A stretch of 64,000 nt of DNA from a virus (IMGVR_UViG_2713896905_000004:31599-95598); one strand, 5' to 3'; counted from the stretch's first letter, positions 12,367 to 62,760 are shown. Numbers and translations: made by a program. The notes: a model not told the origin generated them from the letters alone.

Positions 12367-12685
12367 ATTGGCAGCCTCCTTAGACGTTGGTATGTAACCA
12401 CCGCAGAAGAGACCAATCTTGCTGGCGGTGGACTGTACGGAGTTGGCCTTACTGGCGTCCAAGGTAACCAGCCTACCCGAAGGTAGCCCCATACAGCCCA
12501 CCATTGTAGAGGTGTGCGTGTACGCCGATACAAAAAAAGACGCGAGCGGCGTCTGTATCGCCTTAGACTTAAGCGGGAGGCCAATCCCGGCACCCGTTTT
12601 AATGAGGTGCCTGATAAGCATAAACCGAAAATGCCTCAAGGCGCAAGAGGTCAGGTTCAATGTAACATCGGTAGTTAAAAAACAC

Positions 12686-19703: not shown

Positions 19704-19976
19704 TTAAGGCTCACATTTCCAGATGGTATTCTGAACACCCGAACCGGGCGCAAGATTAGGGTTAGCGTTCGCGCTATGCTGATATACTGCTTTAGACTTC
19801 CCATATTGCTGACAGGCTTTATCTGCGGTTTTTTGCAGGCTATCCAGGCCATACCAACCATCTGACTGTATGCTTACCTTTTCACCGTCGTTGTATTGCA
19901 CCATTGCACACCCAGATATAGCCAGTATCGCGCCGACAATAACGCTTTTCCATAAAACTCTATGCAACATATACAA
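19704..19976 (-). CDS. small lipoprotein
   Basis: Signal peptide with lipobox ILAISGC. Confidence 0.5.
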
Positions 19977-20015
19977 AAATCCCCTCTGTGAATTGAGGGG
20001 ATTTTAGCATGGTGA

Positions 20016-20789
20016 TCAGATATCGGCCTTATTCGGAATTTTATCAGCCACCAGCGGCAATAAAGCCTTCGCCATTTCATGAACCAACATGGCATCAATG
20101 ACGCCTAGCGTATGGCCCGGCTTAATCTTTAATGCGGCCTCAAGATAGCCTCTTTCCAGAGTGGTTTTTACGCTTTTCTTGGGCGATTGTTGGGAACTAT
20201 CCGGAAAATCCGGATGGTTGCCAGCCACATAAGCTACCCGCAACCAGTGCATGAATGTTTCCGCAGACACACAACCGCAGTCCACATCGATTTTCCCGCG
20301 TTGCTGTTCCAGCCATTGCTCAAAATCTAACTTGTAAGCCTTACTTTCAGGTTCATCACCATTGAACTCGACTTTCTGCGACGCTATGAGAGCAGCTTCG
20401 TATTGTTCGCGAGTGACAACTGACTGGTATTCATCGCTATCAAGGTCACCGATTGGAAGCTCAATCTCACAACAAAAATTGCGCCCAAAGAAAGTGTCTT
20501 TTTTGTGGTCCGAGCCAAAAGCAAAAGTCGCGCATGGCGCCATTAAATTGGCACTGAGCAGGCGACAATCGATCATACCATCAGGCCACCCGCCGCACTT
20601 GGGCAGCTCCTTCACTAACAAGTCGATAAGCTTCATTTTTTTATCATCTTTGCAAGCCGCCAAAGCCATTTGGGCAAGTGCCAATACTTCATCTGCCGTA
20701 TATCCAGCACCGTGACCATACATTTCGATACGGGAAATAATCTCTGATATACGCTCTTCAGTGATTCTGGTCATTTCTTTTTGCGCCAT
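20016..20789 (-). CDS. hypothetical protein
   Basis: 257-aa ORF. Confidence 0.5.
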   Translation of the reverse strand: MAQKEMTRITEERISEIISRIEMYGHGAGYTADEVLALAQMALAACKDDKKMKLIDLLVKELPKCGGWPDGMIDCRLLSANLMAPCATFAFGSDHKKDTFFGRNFCCEIELPIGDLDSDEYQSVVTREQYEAALIASQKVEFNGDEPESKAYKLDFEQWLEQQRGKIDVDCGCVSAETFMHWLRVAYVAGNHPDFPDSSQQSPKKSVKTTLERGYLEAALKIKPGHTLGVIDAMLVHEMAKALLPLVADKIPNKADI

Positions 20790-21145
20790 TTCTTTTCACA
20801 TTCCTTAGTCCATTTTTCAATGTTCATTTTGGCAATATCAGTCATTCCATCACCTAAGAAATACTTTTTCCGGTATGTCTTGCACTTAAACCACACTACA
20901 ACAGCCACCAGCCAGAAAATAAAAGGCCATACAGCAATACCAACGACAGCCGCGATAAAGCCCAATAGCCATAAATGAAGCTCTCCAACTTCTGTTTCCG
21001 GCAATATTCTTAAAGAATTAAACAGCAGGCTGAACGAATGGTCGTATGCATTGGCAGTATAAGACATGCAATCCATATAATTAAAGTCATAGCCTGCGGC
21101 TGCCGCCCATAATGGGCGGTCAAGAAAATGTTTTAGTGTCATCAT
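20771..21145 (-). CDS. hypothetical membrane protein
   Basis: Hydrophobic stretch LWLLGFIAAVVGIAVWPFIFWLVAVVVWF, basic C-terminus; AT-rich. Confidence 0.5.
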   Translation of the reverse strand: MMTLKHFLDRPLWAAAAGYDFNYMDCMSYTANAYDHSFSLLFNSLRILPETEVGELHLWLLGFIAAVVGIAVWPFIFWLVAVVVWFKCKTYRKKYFLGDGMTDIAKMNIEKWTKECEKKWRKKK

Positions 21146-21151
21146 ATAAAT

Positions 21152-21445
21152 TCAAGGTTCAGACCAGTTATCTTCAATAGCAATGCTTAATCTTTGTAGC
21201 CATTCTGCTAATTTCAGCATTGCTTCTCTTTCGCTTAAACCACGAGGAAAATCATCAAGTGAAATTGTTGGCTTGAATCCCCCGTAATTATCCATTTCAA
21301 CTGTCAGATTTTGTTCCAGCACGGTATTTCTTACGCGACTATTGTGCCGGAGCAAATATACTGAGCGTGATTTATTGGTTTTGTGGTCTAGCTTATATTC
21401 GGTAAGTATCATCTGGCTTTTGCCATGATTATTACCTCTCCACAT
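21152..21445 (-). CDS. hypothetical protein
   Basis: Start chosen at the internal ATG with GAGGT ribosome-binding site; AT-rich. Confidence 0.45.
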   Translation of the reverse strand: MWRGNNHGKSQMILTEYKLDHKTNKSRSVYLLRHNSRVRNTVLEQNLTVEMDNYGGFKPTISLDDFPRGLSEREAMLKLAEWLQRLSIAIEDNWSEP

Positions 21446-21452
21446 ACTTACC

Positions 21453-21575
21453 TCACTTAATAAAACAACTCCATGCGTAGTTGATGATTTTTCCCCACGT
21501 AATATAAATCTGCACTCCGGCAGTAAAACCAAAGCCAACAATTGCTGAAAAAATCAAAACATTTACTTTTGACAT
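21453..21575 (-). CDS. putative 40-aa transmembrane peptide
   Basis: MSKVNVLIFSAIVGFGFTAGVQIYITWGKIINYAWSCFIK; stop abuts the next gene's ribosome-binding site. Confidence 0.3.
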   Translation of the reverse strand: MSKVNVLIFSAIVGFGFTAGVQIYITWGKIINYAWSCFIK

Positions 21576-21623
21576 TATAAATTTTCTCTCGGTGTCGTAG
21601 GTTATAGCACCATAATTGATAAT

Positions 21624-21857
21624 TTAGTGAGTTAGCAGTTCCATTTTTTGGATGATTTCCGCATGAGCATCATCGTTGTCAACACTTAACTCGTTTAATG
21701 CCTCTCGCACTACATCAACTTCTTCTGGTTGGAAGAAGTCATCTCGGTAGTCACCAAATAGAACCGAAACAAGCCTTCCACCAGCAACATCAAGATTGGC
21801 GCTAACAGGTGGCTCTTTACCATCCTCAAATTCGATTACAAAAGTTAATTTCCCCAT
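21624..21857 (-). CDS. small acidic hypothetical protein
   Basis: Start chosen at the Met with GGTGGT ribosome-binding site. Confidence 0.4.
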   Translation of the reverse strand: MGKLTFVIEFEDGKEPPVSANLDVAGGRLVSVLFGDYRDDFFQPEEVDVVREALNELSVDNDDAHAEIIQKMELLTH

Positions 21858-21939
21858 CGTTACCACCAGCGACAAATTGAATACAAACCCAGTGCTGCCG
21901 CCATCACAATTCCTACCGTTGCGAATGCTTCAGGCCAGC

Positions 21940-23163
21940 TCATTGACCTGCCTCCTGGGGAGGTTCTGGTAGCAGCATCCAGAACAAGGCGTTCCCTAAC
22001 CAGGATAAAGTGCCGTCGCTCAACTCCACGTATTCCCCTTGCACCTGTCCTGCCATATACTCACCGTGCTTTGAATAAATTAAAATCCAATCATCTTGAG
22101 CGGGCATTCGCTCACTACAGCTTATCCAACCATCCGGAGTTACCTGAGAATTGCCATTTACCAAGTCAGCTCGAACATATAGCGTGTCATCATGGTGCTG
22201 ATTGTGGCTGCACCACGTTAATTCGCTTAACTCGCCATCTTCTGGCCATACTCCAGCTGTTTGCAGCCAGATATGGGCTGGCGCATCCTGGCAAGGTGTA
22301 TTAACTGGAAACTTGTAAGTTTGGCTTACAGGTTGGCTACCCTGAAGCATGGCAGCGTGGCAGGCATACTCAACGCCCTTAACTGCATCTGCGCAGTAGT
22401 TATAGCGATTGCATTCCACTAATTTCCGTTTGAGTTTTTCAATTGCCTGCGCGACATCAGCCTGTATTACAGGAACTGGCGGAACGGCTGTTTGCTCTCG
22501 AACGTCATTAGTCGCTATCGGTTCTGCTGCCAACTGACTGGCATATTTGTTAATGGTAACGATAAGCTCTTGCTCAGCCTCATCCAGACAATCACCGATA
22601 CCTCGCCTGTCACCGTCAAAATCATCGAAATCGGCACGAATCTTGGCAACCTTCAGGATTGCGGACAACACTTCACTAGGAATTACCGGATAGTTGGTTG
22701 ACGTTTCCGCGATTTCCCGAAAATTATTGGTTGACGAATTCTTATTTTCCCGAAAGTTTCCGGACTGAAGCATGGCGGCGCGGCAGGCGTTCCAGCCTCT
22801 AGCCTCTGCGATTGCCGCAACCGCATCAATCGCGAACATGTTCGAAGCTTTGGGCATCGGTTTTTCCTCCGGCACTATCGGCGCTGGCGGGGCGGTGTAA
22901 AGTGGAATAGCTTCTGTCTTGCACCCATCCCCCTTGCCGGGTGATAGTGGCGCAAGACACACCCGCCACGGGCCAATCTGCACACCGTCAAAAAGACTAG
23001 TAAGCCGCCATTTCCACGCTACAGGCTCCGCTTCGATCGATGCCAGTGCAATCCGTGCCAGTTCTTCCGCTTCTTCTGCTGGCAGTACAACGTTGCTACC
23101 CGGTCCGTATGTTTCGCGCCACTGCTTGATTGTCAGCAGTCGCTCTTTGGTTATAGTGGTCAT
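21940..23163 (-). CDS. hypothetical protein with DUF551-like C-terminus
   Basis: C-terminal WISCSERMPAQDDWILIYSKHGEYMAGQ... resembles a common prophage domain. Confidence 0.55.
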   Translation of the reverse strand: MTTITKERLLTIKQWRETYGPGSNVVLPAEEAEELARIALASIEAEPVAWKWRLTSLFDGVQIGPWRVCLAPLSPGKGDGCKTEAIPLYTAPPAPIVPEEKPMPKASNMFAIDAVAAIAEARGWNACRAAMLQSGNFRENKNSSTNNFREIAETSTNYPVIPSEVLSAILKVAKIRADFDDFDGDRRGIGDCLDEAEQELIVTINKYASQLAAEPIATNDVREQTAVPPVPVIQADVAQAIEKLKRKLVECNRYNYCADAVKGVEYACHAAMLQGSQPVSQTYKFPVNTPCQDAPAHIWLQTAGVWPEDGELSELTWCSHNQHHDDTLYVRADLVNGNSQVTPDGWISCSERMPAQDDWILIYSKHGEYMAGQVQGEYVELSDGTLSWLGNALFWMLLPEPPQEAGQ

Positions 23164-23441
23164 TTGTTAATCCTCAAAACTTTATGCCCGGGCGCAAAAG
23201 CACGCGTTTTGTCTTTGCTTATTCGCCAGCCATCCTTGCGCGCCTCTTTTGCACAGCCAGCCCATGACGTACCTATATACTCACCGAAGTCTGGCGACTT
23301 ATATTTGCCATCTGTACACTGGAGGCAATCACAATAGAGATGCATGGTGTAACTTGCAGCGATAGCCATATCACTCTCCTTTAGTGCGCAAGTGGTTTTT
23401 CCAGCGGTTTTGCGCCGCGCTGGGCTTTTTGCAAAAACCAC
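23160..23441 (-). CDS. small Cys-rich hypothetical protein
   Basis: ORF with GTG start; CDCLQC motif. Confidence 0.35.
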   Translation of the reverse strand: MVFAKSPARRKTAGKTTCALKESDMAIAASYTMHLYCDCLQCTDGKYKSPDFGEYIGTSWAGCAKEARKDGWRISKDKTRAFAPGHKVLRINK

Positions 23442-23558
23442 AATCCATCATCCCGTAATATTTCATCAACCCCATCCGTCGGTTGCTGAGTCTCACCCAC
23501 TGCCAGACGCCAGGAGCGTTTCTACGAACTAACAGAATCTTTGCTTTACGGTTTTTCA
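23370..23558 (-). CDS. small basic protein (MKNRKAK... paralog 1)
   Basis: Shares start motif atgaaaaaccgtaaRgcaaa with 23562-23732; my count places this ORF 1 nt left of the supplied track. Confidence 0.3.
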
Positions 23559-23561
23559 TCT

Positions 23562-23732
23562 TACAGCGTACCCTTTCTTCCGCCTGTTCTGTGACGCAGT
23601 AGGCTTACGCTTTGCGGCAAAAGCCACCTGACCAAATGGATGGAGTACCGCTATCTTATGGTTGCTAATAACCAGCTCCACCACACGCACAGGTCGCTGT
23701 AAAAAAAGTCGTTTTGCCTTACGGTTTTTCAT
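23562..23732 (-). CDS. small basic protein (MKNRKAK... paralog 2)
   Basis: 56-aa ORF; start overlaps the stop of the upstream small ORF. Confidence 0.3.
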
Positions 23733-23905
23733 CGCTTTGCTCTCCTGCGTCTCTTTGCTGCTCGTCGTGCCGCTGCAATACCGGTATGGCGGCGCTTTGG
23801 TGCCGGGATGATGTTGTCAGCCATCAGGACATACGGCTTTGCAATTAGCGCAGAAGCCCAAAAACGAGTCGGGTACGGTAACAAGCCGATACATGCCACA
23901 CGCAT
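23729..23905 (-). CDS. small basic protein
   Basis: AGGAGGTGA ribosome-binding site; start overlaps the stop of the 252-aa gene. Confidence 0.3.
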   Translation of the reverse strand: MRVACIGLLPYPTRFWASALIAKPYVLMADNIIPAPKRRHTGIAAARRAAKRRRRAKR

Positions 23906-26122: not shown

Positions 26123-26300
26123 GCATCCCCCTTACCCATGTGCGACGATGCCGCCAAAAGTGATAGAGAACAGCCAGAAATAGATCGCGGCCATAATGAT
26201 TTTGAATGCCGTGTTCATATTTTCAGCTCCTGTGATTGATTGGATACATGCCGCGCCTTGCGGCATGTTTTTATTTTCACTTTCTCTGTTTTAAAAATCA

Positions 26301-26317
26301 ATATTTATTAGAGCAAT
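26301..26317. promoter_or_regulatory. C1 operator
   Basis: atatttattagagcaat. Confidence 0.55.
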
Positions 26318-57891: not shown

Positions 57892-58524
57892 ATGTTTGTG
57901 CCTGTACTGTTAAAGGGGGACTCTAAAATGGCTGTGATTCCAATGTCGTACTCCCCGGGTACTGTCGCTCGTCGATTTTCGATCCTGGACGGAGTTACCA
58001 TCCAGGGTGTGCTTTACCAGGTTATATGGGATTCCAAAACCCCATTTGCAGCTGTAATAGAGGCTGCGCCTTCTGTTATCGATGGTGATATGCGCCATAA
58101 GGTTGTCGCTACTCTTGAACTTCAACGTCGCCCGCAGCTTGAAGGCGTACTGGTAAGGAAGTTCTGGGAGGATAGCGATGTTGCCCAGATTGAAGGTATC
58201 GTGGTTGATGGAACCGTCCGGGATGTCGGTTTAGCTACTTTTGTTTACGAAACCGTAGCCTCAAAAGCTGGTGTTGTTTTGCTCAGTGATAATGAGCAAT
58301 ACGAAGGTGGAAAAGCTCTTTGGCAACACATCGCCCGTCGCTCTTCCGAGCTAAAAGTGTTTATCCTCGACACCGATGCCGCTCAGTATTACCCGTTTGA
58401 CGGCGAACGTGTTTGCTATGACGGGGTAAGTATTCCTGAATCCGAGATATGGAGTGAACACCCAGATCGAAGTAAGCATGGGGTTGTTCTGGTCGCTGAA
58501 TCCATAATTGGAAAGGCGGCATAG
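57892..58524 (+). CDS. hypothetical protein behind an AT-rich leader
   Basis: 210-aa ORF (possible internal start at MAVIPMSY). Confidence 0.45.
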   Translation: MFVPVLLKGDSKMAVIPMSYSPGTVARRFSILDGVTIQGVLYQVIWDSKTPFAAVIEAAPSVIDGDMRHKVVATLELQRRPQLEGVLVRKFWEDSDVAQIEGIVVDGTVRDVGLATFVYETVASKAGVVLLSDNEQYEGGKALWQHIARRSSELKVFILDTDAAQYYPFDGERVCYDGVSIPESEIWSEHPDRSKHGVVLVAESIIGKAA

Positions 58525-58706
58525 CAGTAAAAAATTCCTTGCTCCTAAAAAGGGGAGAGGGCTAATCTACGTATGCTAAGCATAGATATGGCCTCAGATT
58601 AATGTTAAGCGTCTTGCAGGACGCGTAATGTTATCTGGGGCTTTCTTCTATCTGCTTGTCGGGTAATGCCTGAAGCAGATAGCCTCAAGCACCCGCAGCG
58701 ATTGTA

Positions 58707-62479: not shown

Positions 62480-62760
62480 CTCGTAAGTTGATAAACAACC
62501 TGCGACCCGCTGCTAAACAGGTGGCAGGACGTGACGGGGTTAGCAGACTGGCACTTACGAAACCAGCAGGCCGAAGCCTCCCCATCACGCCCCACCATAA
62601 TTCGGGCGTAACGTGGTTTACGGACACAAAAATACCGCAATATCGGAAATCTGCGGTTGTCCGCGTAAGTATTCAGGCTGCTAAACCCGGTCGCAGAATT
62701 TGCTACGACGGCGGAACTATAAGCCTGAACGATTAAAAGGTCAATATGATGTGAAAAGAT
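62480..62760 (-). ncRNA. region expected to encode the c4-type antisense RNA and its target sites
   Basis: Non-coding leader between operator and icd; repeated ctgctaaac motifs; exact ends not determined. Confidence 0.3.

Follow-up and report, generated by a model that had tools for sequence, protein, structure and literature searches.

Within the 64-kb window, by which we mean the whole stretch of DNA that was analysed, positions 20771-21875 hold four tightly packed minus-strand genes for proteins of 124, 97, 40 and 77 amino acids, here called A124, B97, C40 and D77 (A to D for short), together with a fifth candidate gene for a 27-aa peptide, E27. The GC content of this stretch is 39.3%, compared with 47.9% for the whole window; among windows of the same length (mean 0.479, sd 0.027; minimum in the window 0.389), it ranks in the lowest 0.2%. 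Practically no other 1.1 kb of the 64 kb is as AT-rich, and the shift in composition reported by the initial annotation was thereby borne out. Low GC might have been intrinsic to these gene families; we rejected this idea because their homologues elsewhere span 41% to 51% GC. Repeats in the cluster region are short only and chance-like in appearance. The intergenic gaps between A124, B97, C40 and D77 measure 6, 7 and 48 nt, and throughout the operon start and stop codons overlap or sit a few bases apart. The 48-nt gap, which lies upstream of C40, contains the extended -10-like sequence TGcTATAAc, a candidate internal promoter.

The gene list of the initial annotation needed some adjustment. 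Its four minus-strand genes are present, as are their tight packing on one strand, the acidic D77, the single-span C40 and the basic tail of A124; B97, counted there as 98 aa, is instead 97 aa long from its ATG, and the candidate E27 at 21860-21943 had been overlooked. The description of the cluster as encoding membrane peptides holds for only part of it: hydropathy predicts one membrane span each in A124 and C40, and also in E27, whereas such a span is absent from B97 and D77 (KD19 peaks at 0.21 and 0.98, respectively), which are soluble.

A124 (20771-21145, minus strand) is, from its open reading frame and hydropathy, a predicted single-pass inner-membrane protein of 124 aa with a pI of 9.1, a single hydrophobic span that runs without interruption from about residue 56 to 86, and a tail carrying 14 lysine or arginine residues. 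The protein can be divided into a conserved acidic N-terminal helical domain, the span and an amphipathic, basic helix at the C-terminus. Among the 22 family members, most have a basic flank on the C-terminal side of the span and an acidic one on the N-terminal side; because of this charge distribution, the positive-inside rule suggests an N-out/C-in topology, in which the N-terminal domain would be periplasmic and the basic tail cytoplasmic. The AF2 model (pLDDT 92) is all-helical, with one long helix of 45 residues (53-97) running through the hydrophobic stretch. Foldseek found no fold match for this model in the PDB (E>2) and a single relative in BFVD, an unnamed member of the same family. 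Furthermore, when 1.84 billion representatives of 50%-identity clusters were scanned exhaustively with HMMER, only 26 relatives emerged at E<=0.001.

B97 (21152-21445, minus strand) starts at an ATG preceded by a GAGG Shine-Dalgarno sequence; a longer reading frame opening at a TTG was considered and judged the unlikely start. Its AF2 model is a soluble fold of four antiparallel strands forming a sheet, plus a C-terminal helix, and a motif near the C-terminus, DFPxGLSxRExMLKLADWLxRL..IEDNWS, is strongly conserved. D77 (21624-21857, minus strand) encodes an acidic soluble protein of 77 aa with a pI of 4.2 and a net charge of -12, of which the alignment shows the N-terminal 42 residues to be conserved and the acidic C-terminal helix to be variable. 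A124, B97 and D77 are under purifying selection, with dN/dS values of ~0.27, 0.15 and ~0.04, respectively.

The two shortest reading frames required closer scrutiny, as E27 and possibly also C40 might be chance ORFs in AT-rich spacer DNA. C40 (21453-21575, minus strand) encodes a 40-aa peptide with a single hydrophobic span, and its dN/dS of 0.6-1.0 (about 1 as pN/pS), calculated from few sites, is what such a chance ORF would display. However, C40 shares the motif GFGxxAGxxxYITW with homologues in Uetakevirus-like phages that are 47-50% identical at the protein level, and it belongs to a PHROG family; because these homologues with their conserved motif occur in unrelated phages, C40 is, on this comparative evidence, a real gene. 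E27 (21860-21943, minus strand), a candidate hydrophobic peptide of 27 aa, is the more exposed of the two. It has no PHROG match or other family, its match to the Pfam family DUF7512 stays below threshold, its variation comprises only five unique sequences with four variant codons, and of the 63 IMG/VR loci whose flanks were long enough, it was seen in 44 and undetected in 19. On the other hand, an AGGAGG Shine-Dalgarno sequence stands 7 nt upstream of its start, and this start overlaps the stop codon of the upstream 407-aa gene as ATGA, an arrangement typical of coupled translation. On balance, we regard a chance origin as the lesser possibility, albeit one with some weight.

On both sides the cluster is continued by larger genes on the same strand. 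The upstream neighbour (407 aa, 21940-23163, minus strand) is a mosaic that matches several PHROG pieces and ends in a C-terminal DUF551 domain (Pfam PF04448, E 6e-9). The downstream neighbour (252 aa, 20016-20774, minus strand; 257 aa if read from an upstream ATG) most likely starts with an ATGA overlap with the A124 stop codon and is similar to the P1 PmgU region at its C-terminus. An Ead/Ea22-like gene and the DUF551 gene lie in the same operon as the cluster.

By its sequence similarity, the window derives from a P1-like phage-plasmid of the SJ46 type. Megablast aligned it at ~97% to the P1-like phages SJ46 and vB_EcoM-813R1 and also matched 310 plasmids, mostly non-mobilizable and ~90-100 kb in size, from E. 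coli, Salmonella, Shigella and Klebsiella. Genes A to E are placed between pap and hot/humD, conserved parts of the P1-type backbone, and the flanking products match the P1 proteins at 98% (pap), 95% (hot) and 98-100% (humD, phd, doc, pdcA and pdcB, with 99-100% for the first three). [quoted passage not shown] The AT-rich stretch is an ordinary patch of an already known low-GC variable slot. In P1 itself, every gene of this slot that was tested in a CRISPRi screen proved non-essential, with upfM lying outside the screen (PMC10695390).

Comparison with canonical P1 confirmed that the genes are additions to this backbone. In its pap-lpa region none of A to E has a homologue, and the genes of the upfM-upfO run, with which the initial annotation had proposed a comparison, are unrelated to them; thus neither the presence of the same genes in P1 nor a GC content equal to the average, either of which would have spoken against a foreign origin, was found. 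The likeness between the two slots is one of position and setting, as both lie between pap and hot/humD behind the same upstream C1 operator and promoter, both vary among relatives and both are low in GC (37-42% in P1 upfM-upfO). Their gene content, in contrast, is entirely unlike, and UpfM, UpfN and UpfO are not predicted to be membrane peptides. By analogy with the P1 slot, and given that many P1-like plasmids lack A-E, these genes would be dispensable for phage growth.

How the genes travel was seen by comparing relatives. Among the 63 IMG/VR loci that were retrieved with A124 and have enough flank, 41 carry the full gene order, 13 keep B and A with E, D and C replaced by other genes (one of which is annotated as a putative RNA-binding protein in RCS47), and the others vary upstream. 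Aligning the window by blastn to individual loci (L025, L007, L014 and L080) located a mosaic breakpoint at 21451-21452, which separates a B-A block (21451-20770) from an E-D-C block (21949-21452), and further breakpoints at ~20770 and ~21949; between P1-like relatives, these breakpoints fall at gene boundaries. In the PLSDB collection, pap occurs in 654 plasmids, the B-A block in 309 and the E-D-C block in 225. C40 and D77 co-occur in every locus whose sequence spans both positions. Outside P1-like elements, however, the families of A, B, C and D each occur without the others alongside. Relatives of A124 reside in early regions of Yersinia, Klebsiella, Proteus and Morganella phages, those of B97 in the nin region of mEp235 (between ninF and rusA), in N15 as gp44, in phiKO2 and in P22-like phages, all of which lack A. 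D77 homologues belong to the early-left (PL) operons of lambdoid prophages, downstream of the recombination genes (erf/ssb, recT) and near int, whereas homologues of C40 adjoin ea22/Eaa genes. Proteins encoded downstream of the C40 homologues in EC.W1-9 and phiv142-3 were tested as possible kin of B97 and turned out to be unrelated. The horizontal acquisition proposed from composition is therefore supported, by the absence of the genes from canonical P1, their presence in only 309 (B-A) and 225 (E-D-C) of the 654 pap-carrying plasmids, breakpoints at gene boundaries and distant relatives scattered among unrelated temperate phages.

We consider it probable that the cluster is a mosaic of early accessory genes, individually exchanged into a known variable slot of a P1-like phage-plasmid, and this is the best explanation of the data. 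Five small accessory genes of the lambdoid ea/nin type would have been swapped singly into the low-GC slot between pap and hot, and they would not constitute a four-gene machine, nor would the phage need them. The likeness to the nin, ea and early-left regions of lambdoid phages is that of early, non-essential genes of small size, densely packed, with start codons that overlap stop codons, and exchanged one by one; it extends to the Ead/Ea22-like and DUF551 genes that share the operon with the cluster here. There are also differences: C1 controls the present element, a myovirus phage-plasmid of the P1 type, whereas lambdoid phages use N/Q antitermination, and no named nin or ea Pfam family matches A to D.

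The constancy of one gene pair speaks for a larger unit. In the 80 P1-like IMG/VR loci retrieved with A, B always precedes A, directly in 78 of them and with a 52-aa ORF in between in the other two. The gap between the genes is 6 nt, A124 has no Shine-Dalgarno sequence of its own, most comparisons show the 682-bp B-A block travelling intact, and both genes are under purifying selection. B97 and A124 might thus form a translationally coupled two-gene unit consisting of a soluble and a membrane partner, with C40, D77 and E27 as a separate cassette. We think this unlikely as a description of the cluster, since the two families are never adjacent outside P1-like elements: in N15, phiKO2, mEp235 and P22-like phages B97 relatives stand without A, in Yersinia P840 the A124 relative has no B alongside, and in Proteus phages the two genes are ~6 kb apart. 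Furthermore, in the two exceptional loci (L077 and L080) the 52-aa ORF, which is hydrophobic, and a hairpin lie between B and A, and the two genes diverge differently there (91% vs 78%). Still, A and B could work together, because they are neighbours in the 80 loci and A lacks a Shine-Dalgarno sequence of its own; their constant adjacency, as well as the co-occurrence of C40 and D77, weighs against the part of the mosaic explanation in which every protein acts singly.

Database searches assigned the proteins to families of hypothetical genes. All four of the longer ones strongly match PHROG families of unknown function (for instance, phrog_2638 at E 2e-63 for A124, phrog_5525 at E 4e-23 for C40 and phrog_3876 at E 1.5e-52 for D77), and the source names of exactly identical proteins are almost all "hypothetical protein", with C40 bearing in addition a generic membrane-protein label. 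The exact sequences of A124 and B97 occur on at least 1000 contigs each, and the proteins are found in E. coli, Salmonella and Shigella. When the five ORFs and both neighbours were compared with Pfam and NCBIfam, A to E received no meaningful match, only unrelated ones at chance level; PADLOC gave zero matches at E<=1 for the same seven proteins. PDB sequences yielded nothing meaningful, either in single-sequence searches with A, B and D or in profile searches with the A and B alignments, and precomputed Pfam domains on the homologues were absent except in two homologues that resemble fusions. Rfam contained nothing for the region. One candidate was the membrane toxin CptA/YgfX (PF07254), whose profile weakly matches the hydrophobic span of A124; it was rejected because its score of 13.5 bits (E 0.08) falls short of the gathering score, 27.3. 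This match is confined to the membrane segment, and no SdhE/CptB-like partner was identified.

To place the cluster in the transcription programme, we took operator and promoter positions from the P1 GenBank annotation, in which the C1 operator OpmgT (Op88) lies directly behind pap, over the predicted pmgT promoters. The corresponding operator is found in the window at 26301-26317 on the minus strand, where it overlaps the PpmgT promoters, as predicted; it departs from the consensus at one position, the promoter region is nearly identical to that of P1, and the operator would mark the start of the operon. The window contains 16 C1 operator matches compared with 0.3 expected, and none other lies between 26301 and 16008. 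At the opposite end, directly after the 252-aa gene, an inverted repeat with an 11 bp stem and a T-rich tail forms a terminator-like hairpin (19976-20005, minus strand). The cluster is thus probably the distal part of a minus-strand operon of ~6.3 kb that extends from PpmgT (~26300) to the hairpin at 20005-19976. Because it is located downstream of the conserved C1 operator and promoter, we infer from the P1 annotation and from sequence conservation that this operon is probably expressed early in the lytic cycle and kept repressed in lysogens. The two annotated -22 motifs of P1 late promoters have no convincing minus-strand counterpart in the cluster or just upstream of it. Likewise, sigma-70-like matches on the minus strand between 18500 and 27500 are no commoner than expected by chance, and none falls inside the cluster. 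Against this timing, an internal promoter in the AT-rich DNA is possible, for which TGcTATAAc would be the candidate.

The initial annotation had described small membrane proteins of this kind as typical of superinfection-exclusion, holin-like or abortive-infection functions. Known small single-pass phage membrane effectors include T4 Imm and Sp, P22 SieA, HK97 gp15, and holins and antiholins, and the outline of A124, with one span, a very basic C-terminal tail and a conserved, extracytoplasmic-looking N-terminal domain, does resemble these. C40 and E27 are single-span peptides as well, all three proteins are below 130 aa with charged tails, variant loci insert another hydrophobic peptide gene at the same place, and the slot is accessory and non-essential in P1 (PMC10695390). 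However, neither sequence nor fold links A124, C40 or E27 to these effectors, the unnamed BFVD family member being the only fold relative in BFVD and PDB. In Pfam and NCBIfam no holin family matched A124, C40 or E27 at E<=1, and no exclusion family (Imm, Sp, SieA/SieB or Sim) and no Abi family was matched in Pfam, NCBIfam or PADLOC. Among the neighbouring genes (those for the DUF551, PmgU-like and Ead/Ea22-like proteins), no endolysin or other lysis gene was identified. Moreover, two of the four originally listed proteins are soluble, and the C1-controlled promoter upstream speaks against the genes being expressed in lysogens, the setting in which a prophage classically excludes other phages; exclusion during lytic growth is conceivable. 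The proposal is left without positive support: the cluster is not a demonstrable exclusion, holin or abortive-infection module, and we consider such a function rather improbable.

Least of all do we believe that C40 is a type I toxin controlled by antisense RNA and modulated by D77 or a neighbouring transcript: its size and hydrophobicity (40 aa, one span) would fit, as would the untranslated 48-nt gap upstream with its extended -10-like sequence and a sigma-70-like match on the opposite strand (21420-21448) that points across C40, but the region 19800-22200 has no Rfam antitoxin or sRNA match even at E<=1, that opposite-strand match belongs to the B block and is still there in loci devoid of C40, shuffled sequence yields promoter matches at least as often (10 found vs 13 expected), an antisense RNA would lack a predicted terminator, and the homologues of C40 sit inside tightly packed early operons with ATGA-type overlaps.

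Returning to the mosaic of individually exchanged accessory genes, we propose that the cluster would be silent in the lysogen and its products made early after induction or infection. A124, C40 and probably E27 would then insert into the inner membrane as single-pass peptides. As a default reading, each protein would act alone on a target in the host envelope or cytoplasm during lytic development, and it may serve to take over the host or to compete with other phages.

Residual interest attaches only to A124, perhaps together with its constant neighbour of the P1 lineage, B97, as it combines a small orphan family with a confidently modelled but unmatched fold. One could imagine that A124 founds an uncharacterised family of inner-membrane effectors, whose conserved periplasmic N-terminal domain shuts off a host envelope function or keeps competitor phages from entering early in lytic growth, possibly with the aid of B97; this is a doubtful extrapolation, and the findings point no more to an exclusion or host-takeover activity than to other roles. 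If one of the proteins, most plausibly A124, did have such an activity, it would offer a cheap and widespread target for study. The significance of our analysis is mainly one of annotation, in that five hypothetical genes are now assigned to a slot of P1-like phage-plasmids already known to be variable and low in GC. It replaces the idea of a membrane-peptide module with that of a slot which would exchange its content gene by gene with early regions of the lambdoid type.

Small hydrophobic peptide genes accumulate repeatedly in the variable interval between pap and hot/humD that holds the cluster. Two P1-like relatives from IMG/VR (L077 and L080) have an insertion between the homologues of B97 and A124, two of the cluster's genes: an ORF of 52 aa whose product has two hydrophobic stretches (about 5760-5918 in L080), followed by a GC-rich hairpin. 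At the hot end of the window's own interval, directly past the operon's terminator-like hairpin and directly ahead of hot, we observed an 88-aa minus-strand ORF (19704-19970). It carries a lipoprotein-type signal (…GAILAISGC…) and has no Pfam match; its product could be a lipoprotein of the outer membrane or of the exclusion type, expressed separately.

Between PpmgT, the predicted promoter overlapped by the C1 operator OpmgT, and the pmgT homologue lies a 28-aa hydrophobic minus-strand ORF (26132-26218; MNTAFKIIMAAIYFWLFSITFGGIVAHG) with an AGGAG Shine-Dalgarno sequence, which canonical P1 keeps at 97% (AF234172, 84392-84478) and which carries no annotation in that record. Directly downstream of the promoter, a perfect 10-bp hairpin (26246-26268), also kept in P1, is terminator-like on the plus strand, where a T-run is found, and not in the operon direction, and possibly stops transcripts that are antisense or convergent to the operon.

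Three consecutive, overlapping small minus-strand ORFs (23371-23905; 62, 58, and 58 aa) encode very basic products, none of the three with a Pfam match. Two share the start MKNRKAK, and this sequence likeness suggests tandem paralogues.

Rfam models placed four tRNA genes at 39605-41357 and a sok antitoxin RNA of a hok/sok-type addiction module at 58520-58694, all on the minus strand. The C4 antisense immunity RNA was found on the same strand in two separate copies (12421-12610 and 62517-62722), one adjoined by an isrK-like sRNA and the other by a c4-a1b1 target element. Because P1 has a single immI c4 and the window two, the second copy may point to a second antirepressor/immunity module.
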